Shown piece by piece: positions 3,249 to 62,867 of a stretch of 64,000 nucleotides of DNA. A program made the position numbers and the translations under genes. How positions within the stretch are numbered: position 1 is the stretch's first letter; each line of letters opens with the position of its first letter. The stretch is from assembly GCF_022846255.1 (NCBI RefSeq), contig NZ_AP025682.1. The stretch is one strand, 5' to 3'. The stretch is from Escherichia coli (lineage in GTDB: Bacteria > Pseudomonadota > Gammaproteobacteria > Enterobacterales > Enterobacteriaceae). Under the pieces are notes generated by a model that saw nothing but the letters and a program-made list of their open reading frames with translations, was not told where the DNA came from and ran no database searches.

Positions 3249-3698
3249 TTATTTTAAGCACTGCGTCCTGATGTACTCCTGCAGGTAGTTAACCTGCGCG
3301 GTTATCCTGTCGATTCCACTTCGGAGACGGTAATAATTGAGTTCAGCATCTGCTGTAAGTCCTGGGCTTTCTCCATCGCCCATGCCGCTGGCTCCGGTCG
3401 TTGACTTTGCACAGGTGGCGGCGACTTGCAGGCGCTTACGCCCAGCAGAAACATCAGCACGGAGACTTTCAATAGTCGCGTTAGCATCAGCAAGCTCCTT
3501 TGTATATCTGGCATCGAGTTCTGCTACGTCACGTTGACGCTTCTGCATGTCAGCGATGATGGATGTGGCTTTGTCGCGCTGTTCTTTGTAGGTCATGGCG
3601 TTATCACGGTAATGATTAACAGCCCATGACAGGCAGACGATGATGCAGATAACCAGAGCGGAGATAATCGCGGTTACTCTGCTCATTGTTGCCCCCAC
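3249..3698 (-). CDS. Rz: Rz i-spanin
   Basis: 149 aa, N-terminal membrane anchor plus coiled-coil-like sequence, overlaps endolysin stop. Confidence 0.8.
3302..3487 (-). CDS. Rz1: Rz1 o-spanin lipoprotein embedded in Rz in another frame
   Basis: Embedded [23 protein letters not shown]..., lipobox VSAC, Pro-rich. Confidence 0.5.
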
Positions 3699-4180
3699 AA
3701 ACAGACTTCACGCTCAATCTCACGGCGAGCCATCAGCCCTTTCCATTGATTACCGCCAGCGTATGTCCAACGCCGTAGCTGATCACATGCGCCTTTGATA
3801 TCGCCCTGGTTTATTTTGCGAAGAAGCGTCGATGTTCTGAAATTGCCAGCGCCCACGTTGTAAACGAATGAGTAAAGAGCGCCGCGCGTTGTTTCCGGTA
3901 TATCGACTTTGATGTACGGGTTAATTTGTCTGGCGACAGTGGCAAGGTCTTTATTCAAGAGTGCTTTGCATTCTGCTTTGGTATACGTTTTACCGAGCAT
4001 GATGTCTTTTCCTGTATGCCCGTGACATACAGTCCATACACCAACAATATCTTTGTATGGTATGTAGCTGACACCTTCCAGACCATCGTTACCACCTGGG
4101 CCAGTGATTAACACTGATGCTATAGCAATTGCTCCGCCACCAATAGCAGCAGCAACGGCTTTTCGTAATGATGGAGGCAT
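3683..4180 (-). CDS. R: SAR endolysin (phage 21 R-type lysozyme)
   Basis: 165 aa; N-terminal Gly/Ala-rich signal-anchor-release segment [23 protein letters not shown] then lysozyme-like domain. Confidence 0.9.
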
Positions 4181-4395
4181 TATTCACCTCTCGCAGCCTT
4201 TCTTCTGTCTTCTCTGATTTTGAAGTACAGATTTGTCAGATAGGTGAGAAAGCCCAACACAAGGCTTCCAAGTACCCCAATCGCAGCCCACTGTGATGGA
4301 CTAACCTGATCCAACCACTGCAAAAACCAGTATCCCGCACTACCAGCGGATGTTCCGTAGGCAATGCCAGTTGAGATTTTGTCCATTGATTTCAT
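4180..4395 (-). CDS. S: Pinholin (phage 21 S-type)
   Basis: 71 aa, [30 protein letters not shown]... with dual-start motif MKSM and two TMDs, matches S21 as recalled. Confidence 0.9.
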
Positions 4396-4513
4396 AGCAA
4401 CGCCTCCGCCAGTAACGGATTGCGTAGTTCTTATATTGGGAAGGGGAAAAAAGAAGGCCGCGGCATAACTATCACTGATGAGTTCAGGATAGCCAGTGGC
4501 TACGGCTCAGTTA

Positions 4514-4589
4514 TGGTGCTGGTTAACGGACTTGAACCGCTACCCATTCGCTTACAAGGCGACTGCTCTACCATTGGAGCTAAACCAGC
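4514..4589 (-). tRNA. tRNA-like gene, anticodon TGT (Thr) by manual folding
   Basis: Cloverleaf: acceptor GCTGGTT/AACCAGC, D-arm GCTC/GAGC, anticodon loop CTTGTAA, T-arm AGCGG-TTCAAGT-CCGTT, encoded CCA; one mismatch atop the anticodon stem. Confidence 0.55.
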
Positions 4590-4594
4590 ATATT

Positions 4595-4669
4595 TGGCGG
4601 GACAGCGTGGACTCGAACCACGATAAGAAGGTTAACAGCCTTCCGTAATGACCTTTATACGACTGACCC
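4595..4669 (-). tRNA. tRNA-like gene, anticodon GTT (Asn) by manual folding
   Basis: Anticodon stem GAAGG/CCTTC, loop CTGTTAA, T-arm CGTGG-TTCGAGT-CCACG, encoded CCA; acceptor and D stems each have one mismatch. Confidence 0.5.
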
Positions 4670-4760
4670 AAATAAAAAAAGCCACCGTTGCAACTTAAGA
4701 GTCACTAACGGCAGCTTATGCCAATAGTGTTGCTCATTTGCTCAATGATGTCAACACGTT

Positions 4761-5249
4761 CTATGCTACATGTTTAATTTTCTCTACACATTTCCGATTT
4801 TTAAACGCACTATCCAGAACCGGGTGAATCATAAACAACGAGGCATTAAGGATTTCGTCAACTTCCCGTCGACAGGTTGCGAGCGATGGTTTTTGAATGC
4901 GCCCGCCGCCACGGCATAACATCTTGCGAGGTCTTGCGACGCGATGATAGTAAGATGCAATGGCGTGCTTGGAAGAGCCATGAGCGTAGTAGCTGAGGAG
5001 GATTCCAAAGGCTTTCTTGTCAATGTACATGACGGAATCGACGACCTGAGAAATCAACATTCCATCATCATCATTACACATTGGCCTTGTCATAACTCTT
5101 CCCGGCTCTACGCTCTCCATGAACTTCGCTATTACGCTGCTCATGCGCTTTTCCAGACGACCTGAATAAACCCATGCGCCCCACAGTTCAAGCCAGCCAT
5201 TCAGCCACTCATGCTGTTCTTTGGTGAGGTTTAGTTCTCTTATGCCCAC
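4761..5249 (-). CDS. Q: Late-gene antiterminator Q (phage 82/21 type, not lambda type)
   Basis: 162 aa; LELWGAWV... and ...[12 protein letters not shown]... resemble QuuD-like Q proteins; sits between nin genes and lysis cassette. Confidence 0.7.
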
Positions 5250-5911
5250 GCGCCTTCTCCCTGTACCTGAATCAATGTGAGATTTCCGCAGAACACTGCC
5301 CCAGTATCGATATACATCTGGTTGGCAAATTTGAGTGGTTTCACTGCTGGCGTATGACCAAAGATAAACGTGTCCGCGCCTTTAATTTCTTTAACGATCC
5401 CGTCTTGTGAGTTGCTGATTCGTTCGCGGTTCCAGATTACCTGCTGATGATCAACTGGCTTTCCAAATTCGTATTCGTCACAAGGATAATCGGCGTGGCA
5501 GATGACATATTTTTTACCTTTGCTCACCAGTTCGATGATTAACGGAAGTTCTTCTGCTTTATGGGCAAGAGCTTTAGCCAGAATTTCTTTGTCGTAATCG
5601 AGATTAAAGAACCAGCCACCGCCATTAAGCAGCCAGTGATTAACGTTTCCACGCTCTGATAAGCCATCAATCATCATTTGCTCATGGTTTCCACGTACAG
5701 CTCTGAACCAGGGGAATGTGATTAATTCCAGGCATTCAACGTTCTCTGCGCCACGATCAACCAAATCGCCCACCGAGATAAGCAGGTCTTTTTTGTTATC
5801 GAATCCAATCGTATCCAGTTTGTTCATCAGGTTCGTGTAGCATCCGTGCAGATCGCCAACTACCCAAATATTTCGGTATTTGCTGCCATCAATTCTTTCG
5901 TAGATATTCAT
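5240..5911 (-). CDS. ninI: NinI Ser/Thr protein phosphatase
   Basis: 223 aa, GDLHG and GNHE metallophosphatase motifs, matches lambda NinI as recalled. Confidence 0.9.
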
Positions 5912-12742: not shown

Positions 12743-12814
12743 GTGCGGCTTTACCGCATACCAATAACGCTTCACTCGAGGCGTTTTTCGTTATGTATAA
12801 ATAAGGAGCACACC

Positions 12815-12979
12815 ATGCAATATGCCATTGCAGGGTGGCCTGTTGCTGGCTGCCCTTCCGAATCTTTACTTGAACGAATCACCCGTAAATTACGTGACGG
12901 ATGGAAACGCCTTATCGACATACTTAATCAGCCAGGAGTCCCCAAAAATGGATCAAACACTTATGGCTATCCAGACTAA
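12815..12979 (+). CDS. cIII: CIII (FtsH inhibitor)
   Basis: Internal Met of ORF 12743..12979: MQYAIAGWPVAGCPSESLLERITRKLRDGWKRLIDILNQPGVP... Confidence 0.85.
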   Translation: MQYAIAGWPVAGCPSESLLERITRKLRDGWKRLIDILNQPGVPKNGSNTYGYPD

Positions 12980-13091
12980 ATTCACTATCGCCACTTTTAT
13001 TGGCGATGAAAAGATGTTTCGTGAGGCCGTCGACGCTTATAAAAAATGGATATTAATACTGAAACTGAGATCAAGCAAAAGCATTCACTAA
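12948..13091 (+). CDS. kil: Kil
   Basis: [47 protein letters not shown] at the end of ORF 12822..13091. Confidence 0.8.
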
Positions 13092-13462
13092 CCCCCTTTC
13101 CTGTTTTCCTAATCAGCCCGGCATTTCGCGGGCGATATTTTCACAGCTATTTCAGGAGTTCAGCCATGAACGCTTATTACATTCAGGATCGTCTTGAGGC
13201 TCAGAGCTGGACGCGTCACTACCAGCAGATCGCCCGTGAAGAGAAAGAGGCAGAACTGGCAGACGACATGGAAAAAGGCCTGCCCCAGCACCTGTTTGAA
13301 TCGCTATGCATCGATCATTTGCAACGCCACGGGGCCAGCAAAAAAGCCATTACCCGTGCGTTCGATGACGATGTTGAGTTTCAGGAGCGCATGGCAGAAC
13401 ACATCCGGTACATGGTTGAAACTATTGCCCGCCACCAGGTTGATATTGATTCAGAGGTATAA
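13046..13462 (+). CDS. gam: Gam (RecBCD inhibitor)
   Basis: 138 aa, [35 protein letters not shown]... Confidence 0.95.
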
Positions 13463-19036: not shown

Positions 19037-19255
19037 ATGTACTTGACACTTCAGGAGTGGAACGCACGCCAGCGACGCCCAAGAAGCCTTGAAACAGTTC
19101 GTCGATGGGTGCGCGAATGCAGGATATTCCCTCCTCCGGTTAAGGATGGAAGAGAGTATCTGTTCCACGAATCAGCGGTAAAGGTTGACTTAAATCGACC
19201 AGTAACAGGTAGCCTTTTGAAGAGGATCAGAAATGGGAAGAAGGCGAAGTCATGA
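19037..19255 (+). CDS. xis: Excisionase Xis
   Basis: 72 aa, MYLTLQEWNARQRRPRSLETVRRWVRECRIFPPPVKDGREYLFHESAVKVDL... near-identical to lambda Xis as recalled. Confidence 0.9.
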   Translation: MYLTLQEWNARQRRPRSLETVRRWVRECRIFPPPVKDGREYLFHESAVKVDLNRPVTGSLLKRIRNGKKAKS

Positions 19256-20306
19256 GCGCCGGGATTTACCCCCTAACCTTTATATAAGAAACAATGGATA
19301 TTACTGCTACAGGGACCCAAGGACGGGTAAAGAGTTCGGATTAGGCAGAGACAGGAGGATAGCAATTACTGAAGCAATACAGGCCAATATTGAGTTACTC
19401 TCAGACAGCGGACGCAAATCACTAATAGACAGAATTAAAGGCGGTGACGCAATCACTCTTCATGTGTGGCTTGACCGATATGAAACAATCCTCACCGAAA
19501 GGGGGATCAGGCCGAAAACTCTACTCGACTACGCCAGCAAAATCAGGGCAATCCGAAGAAAATTGCCGGACAAACCGCTCACTGACATATCAACGAAAGA
19601 AGTGGCAGCAATGCTAAACACCTACGTAGCAGAAGGTAAAGCAGCTTCCGCAAAATTAATCAGGTCAACCCTTGTTGACGTTTTTCGTGAAGCAATAGCC
19701 GAGGGGCATGTGGCAACGAATCCGGTAACAGCAACCCGTACAGCAAAGTCAGAAGTAAGGCGCTCAAGGCTGACAGCTAATGAGTATGTCGAGATTTACC
19801 ATGCAGCCGAACCTCTCCCTATCTGGCTAAGGCTGGCGATGGATTTGGCCGTCGTTACAGGGCAGAGAGTCGGCGATTTGTGCAGAATGAAATGGTCAGA
19901 CATAAACGACAACCATCTTCACATTGAACAGAGTAAAACAGGGGCTAAACTCGCCATTCCGCTAACGCTAACGATTGACGCGCTCAATATCTCATTGGCT
20001 GATACACTACAGAAATGCAGGGAGGCCAGCAGCAGTGAAACTATAATCGCATCAAAGCATCACGATCCGCTTTCCCCGAAAACAGTATCAAAGTATTTTA
20101 CAAAGGCGAGAAATGCATCTGGACTCTCATTTGATGGAAACCCGCCAACATTCCATGAACTGCGTAGCCTGTCAGCGAGGCTATACCGGAACCAGATTGG
20201 CGATAAGTTTGCTCAACGTCTTCTCGGGCATAAATCAGACTCAATGGCGGCGCGGTATAGGGACAGCCGTGGACGGGAATGGGACAAAATTGAAATCGAC
20301 AAATGA
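19233..20306 (+). CDS. int: Tyrosine integrase, lambda family, HK022-like
   Basis: 357 aa; N-terminal arm-binding domain identical to lambda Int, central and catalytic domains diverged; RSLSARLY and HKSD motifs. Confidence 0.95.
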   Translation: MGRRRSHERRDLPPNLYIRNNGYYCYRDPRTGKEFGLGRDRRIAITEAIQANIELLSDSGRKSLIDRIKGGDAITLHVWLDRYETILTERGIRPKTLLDYASKIRAIRRKLPDKPLTDISTKEVAAMLNTYVAEGKAASAKLIRSTLVDVFREAIAEGHVATNPVTATRTAKSEVRRSRLTANEYVEIYHAAEPLPIWLRLAMDLAVVTGQRVGDLCRMKWSDINDNHLHIEQSKTGAKLAIPLTLTIDALNISLADTLQKCREASSSETIIASKHHDPLSPKTVSKYFTKARNASGLSFDGNPPTFHELRSLSARLYRNQIGDKFAQRLLGHKSDSMAARYRDSRGREWDKIEIDK

Positions 20307-24731: not shown

Positions 24732-24904
24732 GGTCAGTGCGTATTTGCAGCGCAACGTTATCAAAGGTGATCATCGTCGATTTACAAAAAATGCACTTTG
24801 CACCCAAAGGATTTCGCTCCGTCACATCGAATGCCGATGTGCGGTACTGTGAACCATGGCAACATGGACAGCGGAAATGGAGATGTTGAGTAATAACGGC
24901 AACC

Positions 24905-25117
24905 TTAGAGTGTAACAACGTTCGCTGCCGCGGGACCACGTTGCCCCTGCTCAATAGAAAATTCAACTTTCTGATTTTCGTTCAGCGTGCGGAATTCATT
25001 GCTCTGGATGGCAGTGAAATGGACGAAAACGTCTTTGCTGCCATCATCAGGAGTGATAAAGCCAAAACCTTTATCTGCGTTAAACCATTTTACTAAACCA
25101 GTCATTTTATTAGACAT
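24905..25117 (-). CDS. cspG: Cold-shock protein CspG
   Basis: 70 aa, [34 protein letters not shown]... Confidence 0.9.
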
Positions 25118-25402
25118 ATTTTACTTCCTTCATTTTGGGCCTTTCGGCAAACAGGGCTTTAATACAGAAACTACTTAGTGTTCAGGAGAGAGACTCAAAA
25201 GAAGGGGATAATGCCTGATAATGAGAACTGCTTTAGTAAACTACTTTGTATGCTGTCTGTCTTTCAAACCGACGCAGCTATTAACGCATGATAATTGAGA
25301 TTAAGCAAATTTTATTTTAGCCGTCCGGCGGTCTTAAATATCGCTGGCTTTATTTTATTAACCCCGTATAGTGCAGCGCAGTATTTTCAGTAAGGAATTT
25401 GT

Positions 25403-35807: not shown

Positions 35808-35895
35808 GCGTCATTCCGGAAGTGTGGCCGAGCGGTTGAAGGCACCGGTCTTGAAAACCGGCGACCCGAAAGGGTTCCAGAGTTCGAATCTCTGC
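35808..35895 (+). tRNA. serT: tRNA-Ser (anticodon TGA)
   Basis: GGAAGTGTGGCCGAGCGGTTGAAGGCACCGGTCTTGAAAACCGGCGACCCGAAAGGGTTCCAGAGTTCGAATCTCTGCGCTTCCGCCA, long variable arm. Confidence 0.95.
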
Positions 35896-36113
35896 GCTTC
35901 CGCCAAATAAGATAAGGGGTTAGCTAAATGCTAACCCCTTTTTCTTTTGCCTGTCGAAATTCTCAGGGCGTTATATCACTGCCTAATGACCTGAGACTCC
36001 GCTGTGAAACTTGTTTCAGATCAAATGCGTAAAGATGGGTAAAACTTCTGTGTACCTTCCCACATTATCATTATGCTGCTTCATTAATAACATCTGTCAT
36101 AGAGAGTGACTCA

Positions 36114-61620: not shown

Positions 61621-62631
61621 TTAGATATGGGTAACGATTTCTTTAATCAGCGGCGGACCTTTAAAAATAAAACCAGAATAAATTTGCACCAGTGAGGCAC
61701 CCGCAGCAATCTTTTCACGCGCAGCGATAACCGAGTCAATGCCGCCAACACCAATAATCGGCAAGCGTCCGTTTAATTCCTGTGACAAGCGGCGAATAAT
61801 TTCGGTGCTTTTTAACTGAAGCGGACGACCACTTAAGCCACCGGTTTGATCGCAATTTTTCATTCCCTGAACCAGAGAACGATCGAGTGTGGTATTGGTT
61901 GCAATAACGCCATCAATATTATGGCGAACTAAACTATCGGCAACCTGGATCAATTCTTCTTCAGAAAGATCCGGCGCGATCTTCACTGCGATCGGCACAT
62001 ATTTATGGTGCATCACTTGCAAATCATTTTGTTTATTTTTAATCGCAGTTAAGAGATCATCCAGCGCTTCACCATATTGCAGTGTGCGTAATCCTGGGGT
62101 ATTTGGCGATGAAATATTGATGGCGATATATCCCGCATAGGCATAGATTTTTTCCATACAAATCAGATAGTCATCTTTACCCTGCTCCACCGGCGTATCT
62201 TTATTTTTGCCGATGTTAATACCCAGAACGCCGTCATAATGGGCTTTTTTTACGTTCTCTACGAGGTTATCAACGCCAAGATTATTAAAGCCCATACGGT
62301 TGATCAAACCTTCGGCATCTACCAAACGAAAGAGACGCGGCTTGTCATTACCTGGCTGGGGACGTGGCGTGACGGTACCGATCTCGATCGATCCAAATCC
62401 CATCGCGCCTAACGCGTCAATGCACTCCCCGTCTTTATCAAGACCGGCTGCCAGACCAAGCGGATTTTTAAACGTCAGGCCCATGCAGTTAACAGGTTTC
62501 GCAGGCACTTTCTGCCGCACCAGTGCTTCAAACGGCGTTCCTGTAATACGGCGTAATTGCTGAAAAGTAAACTCATGAGCGCGCTCTGGATCGAGCTGGA
62601 AAAGGGCTTTACGAACGAAGGGGTAGTACAT
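61621..62631 (-). CDS. pyrD: Dihydroorotate dehydrogenase (quinone)
   Basis: Internal Met [26 protein letters not shown]... Confidence 0.95.
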
Positions 62632-62867
62632 GAACTCTCCTGGATTCCCGGTGTGCAAACCGGGGGCGTATTATGTGCGAGTTCGGACCAAAAGGGAATT
62701 GACCTGCGGCAATAAATAGCAAACGTTTTCTTATTGCGCTTTTTTTATGCTTTTTTTGGCTTTTCTTCCTCAGATAAATCATTTCGACTCGCGGACGCCC
62801 TCTGTCAGACTGACCGAATTGTTATCAATGTTAACAAAACAAGAACAATTGGTTATAAGGAGAGAGT

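Follow-up and report, generated by a model that had tools for sequence, protein, structure and literature searches.

Conserved tRNA-Asn and tRNA-Thr genes in the late leader of a phage 21-like prophage of Escherichia coli

The window, that is the whole stretch of 64,000 nucleotides of Escherichia coli DNA that was analyzed (contig NZ_AP025682.1 of assembly GCF_022846255.1), contains two tandem tRNA genes, tRNA-Asn(GUU) and then tRNA-Thr(UGU), on the strand from which the late genes of a prophage are read. They lie between the gene of the antiterminator Q, upstream, and the lysis genes S21, R21, and Rz, downstream (Table 1). Much of this arrangement had been proposed in a sequence-only reading, and it stands: ARAGORN returned exactly the coordinates given there, both genes encode their CCA ends, the T-run assigned to a tR'-like terminator is present upstream of the pair, and the stem mismatches reappear in the Rfam alignment. 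Both genes were also called in a whole-window search with Rfam RF00005, in which model positions 1–71 were matched end to end at 61.5 bits (E 7e-11) for tRNA-Thr and 55.3 bits (E 3e-9) for tRNA-Asn. These scores are well over the gathering score of 29 and fall in the range of genuine host tRNAs under the same model (57.5 bits for the tRNA-Ser of the window and 53.4, 73.8, and 72.6 bits for K-12 tyrU, thrU, and asnT, respectively). Both genes are bacterial elongator tRNAs by these measures. The host tRNA-Ser is the only other tRNA that ARAGORN finds in the window, and a tRNA-Lys is absent from its calls.

Table 1. Features of the late leader, the prophage, and the rest of the window; positions are those of the window
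Feature	Position	Strand	Evidence and remarks
Rha-like regulator/anti-repressor ORF, 182 aa	2482-3030	minus	PHROG 518, E 4.5e-83
Rz with embedded Rz1	3249-3698	minus	ORF; phage 21 annotation
SAR endolysin R21	3683-4180	minus	ORF; PHROG endolysin match; phage 21 annotation
Pinholin S21	4180-4395	minus	ORF; PHROG holin match; phage 21 annotation
Second terminator-like hairpin	4457-4506, U-rich run 4443-4456	minus	dG -23.4 kcal/mol, z -3.9
tRNA-Thr(UGU)	4514-4589	minus	ARAGORN and Rfam; 76 nt, CCA encoded, G1-C72, C2-G71, A73
Spacer AAUAU, 5 nt	4590-4594	minus	separates tRNA-Asn from tRNA-Thr; AACAU in phage 21 and Sf6
tRNA-Asn(GUU)	4595-4669	minus	ARAGORN and Rfam; 75 nt, CCA encoded, discriminator G73
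tR' intrinsic terminator	4670-4717	minus	hairpin 4679-4717 and U-run 4670-4680; dG -20.2 kcal/mol, z -4.3 to -4.4; annotated in phage 21 and Sf6
Sigma-dependent pause element TAAGCTG	4712-4718	minus	phage 21 annotation; window sequence identical
Late transcript start	4719	minus	carried over from phage 21 annotation
Late promoter pR' region	4731-4754	minus	-35 box and QBE
Q-binding element (QBE) ATTGAGCAAATGAGCA	4731-4746	minus	identical to phage 21; coordinates from phage 21 annotation
pR' -35 box TTGACA	4749-4754	minus	identical to phage 21; coordinates carried over from curated phage 21 annotation
Q antiterminator, phage 21 type	4761-5249	minus	160/162 aa identical to phage 21 Q; PHROG 943, E 8e-89
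Lambda cIII thermoregulator	12802-12860	plus	Rfam, 88.5 bits
Gam, RecBCD inhibitor	13046-13462	plus	94/98 aa identical to phage 21 Gam
ORF, 195 aa	17408-17995	minus	PHROG 23072, 214-393 of 400
Integrase	19233-20306		prophage end, abuts torS
cspA-type thermoregulator	24851-25273	minus	Rfam, 160 bits
Host tRNA-Ser	35818-35905		ARAGORN
PyrD leader	62626-62699	minus	Rfam, 97.9 bits

The mismatch of tRNA-Thr is G27.A43, the topmost position of its anticodon stem (GUCGC/GCGAA), which leaves four pairs; tRNA-Asn has one mismatch in the acceptor stem, U4.U69, and one in the D stem, U13.U22, and its anticodon stem is GAAGG/CCUUC. U8, A14, G18G19, U33, G53-T54-T55-C56, and the 3' CCA are all present in both molecules. 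The E. coli identity set for Asn consists of G34, U35, U36, and G73 and that for Thr of G1-C72, C2-G71, G35, and U36; as read off the sequence, the nucleotides recognized by the cognate synthetase are complete in both genes. For tRNA-Thr, the rescue experiments on the identical sequence that are described below imply that a mature, aminoacylated molecule is made.

The pair occupies the slot that follows a Q21-type qut site and tR' and precedes the lysis genes, and the Q protein encoded there is 99% identical to Q21. On the late strand the T-run of tR' reads TTTTTTTATTT, and its last base directly abuts G1 of tRNA-Asn. Immediately 3' of tRNA-Thr there is a second hairpin, trailed by CUUCUUUUUU, which is conserved with phage 21 and Sf6 as far as the module edge at about 4452. 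It is unannotated in phage 21, and the phage L record has a terminator downstream of its tRNAs; judged from its predicted fold, this hairpin may act as another terminator or stabilize the 3' end. A simple consensus terminator scan of 4150–5300 found no terminator, missing tR' because its stem contains a bulge, and folding recovered both hairpins.

The genes on either side of the pair belong to a phage 21-like prophage that is integrated beside torS. On the late strand NinG and then a NinI-like phosphatase precede Q, and Rz/Rz1 is followed by the Rha-like ORF, cos, Nu1, and the terminase large subunit, whose gene extends past the window edge. The Rha-like ORF occupies the Rz-cos interval, where phage 21 carries bor. 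The prophage encodes Gam, Bet, and Exo. When six prophage ORFs were submitted to PADLOC, neither a tRNA nuclease nor a complete defense system was found among them, only a truncated cytosine methyltransferase and SieB. The 195-aa ORF of Table 1 matches DNA cytosine methyltransferase profiles in their C-terminal part only and is probably a truncated methylase in the accessory region of the prophage. Rfam gave three further matches along the window (Table 1); in a related genome cspG lies beyond yccM in the corresponding region, and the cspA-type match may belong to cspG.

The gene pair is already known, being annotated in phage 21, Sf6, SfI, BTP1, and around a fifth of complete E. coli genomes, and the sequence-only reading had missed both this long-known phage 21/Sf6 pair and the published resistance role of the Thr stem mismatch that is discussed below. 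The phage 21, SfI, and Sf6 records all annotate both tRNAs, with the Sf6 entry reading "similar to phage 21." Over the full 401 bases around the tRNAs the window is 97.8% identical to phage 21 (OL657228) and 97.0% identical to SfI, and Sf6 is 97.4% identical over the central 267 of the 401 bases; within the alignment of the window with phage 21 and Sf6 the two tRNAs are invariant at every base. A segment of HK446 (JQ086372 35087-35261) is 100% identical to window positions 4505–4679, so that HK446 carries the tRNA-Asn too. No tRNA is annotated in the GenBank record of HK446, and a preprint of 2026 (10.64898/2026.07.10.737580) credits this phage with a single tRNA (Thr). The tRNA-Asn is also identical in JLK-2012 and in phage L. 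In all, 92 phage records contain this DNA, as do 987 of the 5,426 complete E. coli genomes searched, and in those genomes the PGAP annotation lists tRNA-Thr and tRNA-Asn. The SfI paper placed the pair downstream of Q and stated that Sf6, ST64T, PS3, and p21 carry one or both genes, and the phage L paper treats the same late-leader slot. In JLK-2012 the pair is followed by a third tRNA (Gly). In Salmonella phage L a gene labeled tRNA-Leu(UAA) can be aligned to the Thr gene if a gap of 4 nt is placed in the anticodon arm; it scores only 42.1 bits with Rfam, and it may be a degraded or repurposed Thr copy rather than a true Leu tRNA.

The sequence-only reading had left undecided whether the two genes are diverged functional tRNAs or decaying copies. 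IMG/VR was scanned with patterns that held each tRNA constant in its 5' half, its anticodon loop, and GTTC but allowed any anticodon stem. Among the matches listed, the exact window sequence accounts for 115 of 139 copies of tRNA-Thr and 132 of 161 copies of tRNA-Asn, and both genes occur together at almost all loci. Ascertainment bias was avoided by measuring Asn in loci found with Thr and Thr in loci found with Asn. Among the loci in the matches listed, the mean difference per site, relative to the window, is 0.9% in tRNA-Asn and 5.0% in tRNA-Thr, as compared with 10–14% in tR', the spacer, and the downstream hairpin and 34–65% in the flanks that lie beyond the module in both directions. Within this mobile module of approximately 267 bp (about 4452–4718), constraint is strongest on the tRNAs, and the fact that their per-site difference is far below that of the flanks indicates purifying selection on them. 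Two variants were seen: a rare Asn form in at least two IMG/VR contigs has the anticodon stem GCAGG/CCUGC, in which A28-U42 is changed to C28-G42 in a compensatory manner, and a JLK-2012-type Thr form in at least 12 contigs combines a 5' half of the phage 21 type with a 3' half near host thrU.

These data bear directly on the notion that the genes are non-functional relics whose stem mismatches are accumulated damage. The Rfam scores of 55–61 bits, as compared with 73–74 bits for host thrU and asnT, and the three non-Watson-Crick pairs over the two genes could be taken to support it. However, tRNA-Ser and tyrU, both genuine host tRNAs, score in the same range, neither gene has lost its universal bases, encoded CCA, or identity nucleotides, and the sequence is identical in phage 21, in Sf6, and in most of the viral-contig copies listed. 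Neither gene shows the flank-like variation and the loss of key bases by which a pseudogene would be recognized, and an identical tRNA-Thr is published to work in cells. With copies conserved across viral contigs well above their flanks, we reject the pseudogene reading, to which we now attach almost no credence and which for tRNA-Thr is effectively refuted; functional genes are favored.

The work on tRNA-Thr in vivo and in vitro concerns P2 OLD, the nuclease of classic P2-lambda interference, which kills through cleavage of host tRNA-Thr(UGU) and from which phage tRNA-Thr(UGU) genes rescue the cell (PMC12445682). Its trigger is Gam, and expression of E. coli thrU gave little or no protection, unlike the phage versions (PMC12445682; 10.64898/2026.07.10.737580). 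The tRNA-Thr of phage 21 (tRNA-Thr21) protected cells and resisted cleavage in vitro, which was ascribed to the combination of a shortened anticodon stem with altered bases close to the two cut sites, neither being sufficient alone (PMC12445682). The tRNA-Thr of HK446 likewise provided strong counter-defense against OLD, although in the same preprint one Thr tRNA failed to rescue lambda and did not relieve recB cells of OLD toxicity; the authors propose that the HK446 tRNA may rather reflect a temperate lifestyle (10.64898/2026.07.10.737580).

Comparison with the host molecule shows where the window gene departs from it. Host thrU has CUG at positions 28–30, CAG at 40–42, and five anticodon-stem pairs, whereas the window tRNA-Thr has UCG, CGA, and four pairs. 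The motifs C28-N-G30, C40-N-G42, and U36-A-A-U39-C40 are present in both host thrU and asnT and absent from both window tRNAs, with positions 36–40 of the window tRNA-Thr reading UAAGC. The window gene consequently has the UGU anticodon, the altered paired CNG (28–30/40–42), and the shortened stem of an OLD-resistant tRNA-Thr, and it shares UGU, C28U/G42A relative to thrU, and the unpaired 27:43 with the rescue tRNAs tRNA-Thr21 and tRNA-Thr6 and with those of HK446, T4, and T5-like phages. As its sequence matches the genome records of phage 21 and HK446 at every base, it would be expected to resist OLD as published. On the analogy of these identical genes, with which the effect was demonstrated, the G27.A43 "defect" is a selected resistance feature of tRNA-Thr, and it provides a useful example of an apparent stem defect being a selected trait that lets a phage tRNA escape the nuclease of a rival prophage. 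In the JLK-2012-type form G42U and U43C break two anticodon-stem pairs and abolish the 3' CNG, and this looks like an independent route to nuclease escape. The tRNA-Thr genes of phages P1 and Cyrano retain CNG on both strands, which counts against nuclease evasion.

For tRNA-Asn the significance was "not clear" to the authors of the SfI paper, and in the literature searched we found no link between a lambdoid tRNA-Asn and defense. Host tRNA-Asn(GUU) is a lesser target, though one that matters biologically, of AriB of PARIS, which cuts at 40|41, after U36-A-A-U39-C40, and the tRNA-Lys of T5 owes its AriB resistance to substitutions of nucleotides 39 and 41. OLD, too, cuts host tRNA-Asn, at a slower rate (PMC12445682). 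Host asnT has CGG at 28–30, CCG at 40–42, and UAAUCC at 36–41, where the window tRNA-Asn has AAG, CUU, and UAACCU; the corresponding 36–41 segments are UAAUCA in host thrU and UAAGCG in the window tRNA-Thr. Both window tRNAs thus carry substitutions around 40|41, from which AriB resistance may follow. A cleavage-resistant tRNA-Lys(UUU) was not found beside them, and because tRNA-Lys(UUU) is the main AriB target, the cassette would be unable to defeat B185 PARIS alone.

Since its anticodon stem lacks the OLD and AriB motifs on both strands, the phage tRNA-Asn is predicted to be nuclease-resistant as the tRNA-Thr is. The rare Asn form with GCAGG/CCUGC recreates CNG on both strands in a stem that is still paired, and this counts against nuclease evasion. 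The tRNA-Asn stands out, as it is more conserved than tRNA-Thr, is unexplained by codon usage (see below), and has a stem that avoids the OLD and AriB motifs. We tentatively suggest, at a little short of even chances and from sequence comparison, that tRNA-Asn is a nuclease-resistant replacement and that the Asn-Thr tandem is a two-gene counter-defense cassette, switched on by Q when the late proteins are needed. If this is true, temperate lambdoid phages carry a two-tRNA counter-defense cassette.

The explanation that best accounts for all of these observations, and that we regard as likely, is that the pair is a functional elongator Asn/Thr cassette, the one shared by phage 21, Sf6, and numerous phages of the lambdoid and P22-like kinds, with Q-dependent expression, a part in the supply of decoding, counter-defense by tRNA-Thr, and, by inference, a like role for tRNA-Asn. 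From the anatomy of the leader, RNA polymerase would start at pR' and would normally halt at tR', and polymerase modified by Q21 would read through tR', so that the tRNAs are made at the front of the late transcript. They would then be freed by RNase P and host 3' exonucleases, the CCA being already encoded, and the pair would supply decoding of ACA and AAC/AAU in late growth. In a cell with a P2 prophage, Gam would trigger the Toprim nuclease OLD, leading to a cut in the anticodon stem of host tRNA-Thr(UGU), the sole reader of ACA, and the phage tRNA-Thr would evade OLD by virtue of its changed paired CNG and an anticodon stem that is one pair shorter. The tRNA-Asn may play the same kind of role against AriB or OLD. 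Because Gam is made early and the tRNAs are made after Q, protection would come late unless tR' leaks.

The simplest alternative is that the tRNAs just top up the pool for codons that are heavy in the late genes, with no evasion of a nuclease. Comparison of codon usage with the host, which the sequence-only reading had advised, fits this in part for Thr and not for Asn. ACA is used at 13.0 per 1000 codons in phage 21 late genes, 14.0 in phage 21 early genes, and 14.4 in the prophage ORFs of the window, as against 8.0 in the host ORFs of the window (odds ratio of phage versus host genes 1.6–1.8, p ≤ 0.002), and the lysis genes S21, R21, and Rz contain 10 ACA in 385 codons. The same ACA bias was reported in the SfI paper, and the phage L paper notes that the Asn codons of a capsid gene are AAC in 24 of 25 cases. 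As ACA is enriched in phage genes, plain supply explains a part of the Thr case, and it is compatible with the main explanation, to which it may contribute. AAC and AAU, in contrast, show no significant enrichment in phage genes (odds ratio 1.0–1.2), and the SfI authors were unable to account for tRNA-Asn. Moreover, AUA, AGA, and AGG are 3–10 times commoner in the prophage ORFs (1400–21600) than in the neighboring host genes (21700–64000), with AGA at 14.1 versus 1.4 per 1000, yet the prophage, unlike the Stx phages, has no tRNA for any of these codons. Nor does topping up account for the failure of thrU to protect as the phage versions do, or for anticodon stems whose departures from the host fall precisely on the cleavage motifs. 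Supply does not explain tRNA-Asn or the specific stem changes, and as a complete account it appears rather unlikely.

Two other roles depend on where the genes are placed. The tRNAs could serve mainly as RNase P signals that remove the pR' leader and set a stable 5' end of the lysis and late mRNA, which would fit with their beginning at +51 of the late transcript right after tR', with the second conserved hairpin after them, and with the whole block moving as a single module. Many lambdoid phages, including lambda and P22, however, have no tRNA at this slot, the conservation of anticodons, identity elements, and CCA goes beyond the needs of processing, and the function of tRNA-Thr depends on decoding, so a role chiefly in RNA processing is improbable. 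Still less probable, to the point of being remote, is compensation for a host tRNA gene broken by integration of the prophage, an idea raised for HK446 in the preprint (10.64898/2026.07.10.737580); some relatives (SfI and P22-like phages) do integrate into thrW. But thrW encodes the CGU isoacceptor, which is neither UGU nor Asn, phage 21 uses the icd site, and genes behind tR' would be poorly placed for expression in a lysogen. This reading was rejected, since the integrase abuts torS and no tRNA was found by ARAGORN at that junction. The functional Asn/Thr cassette, with decoding and nuclease evasion combined, remains our preferred explanation.

Among known systems, the cassette of the Stx phages is the one to which the sequence-only reading had pointed, with the proviso, which proved correct, that its set of tRNAs is a different one. 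There ileZ-argN-argO fills the corresponding slot, with Q and the late promoter before it and the lysis genes after it. In 933W and the Sakai prophages these are rare-codon tRNAs, for Ile AUA and Arg AGA/AGG, and their sequence is unrelated to that of the window pair, whose anticodons are GUU and UGU. For the Stx-phage tRNA slot the SfI paper refers to Schmidt et al. (1997). The tRNA-Lys/Thr/Asn genes of T5 that act against PARIS (PMC11464382, PMC12409363) share two of their three anticodons with the window (Thr UGU and Asn GUU), and at positions 39 and 41 each of the window tRNAs departs from its host counterpart; the T5 genes are, however, not close relatives, and the window lacks the tRNA-Lys(UUU). 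The published studies of OLD rescue tRNAs covered Thr, and the window pairs that Thr with a tRNA-Asn that lies outside those studies.

The same order of genes is found beyond the lambdoid phages. In phage P1 trnA-trnT is a tandem of tRNA-Asn and then tRNA-Thr with the same anticodons, a 2-nt spacer, and a Thr gene that is about 80% identical, but its genomic context is another one, and the P1 tRNA-Thr has the full five-pair stem. Phage Cyrano (108 kb) has tRNA-Asn(GUU) and then tRNA-Thr(UGU), also with a 2-nt spacer; a search with this pair that was aimed at a link to T5 proper returned mostly generic tRNA similarity. As P1 and Cyrano carry it too, the Asn-Thr tandem recurs in unrelated phage groups. 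The closest likeness is with phage 21 and Sf6, which have the same gene order, the same spacer length of 5 nt, Q21-type pR', QBE, and tR' before the pair, and the hairpin after it, and in phage 21 the S21-R21-Rz lysis genes also follow. The differences amount to C rather than U in the spacer, a few bases of the flanks, and the site of integration, which is icd for phage 21 and adjoins torS for the prophage of the window.
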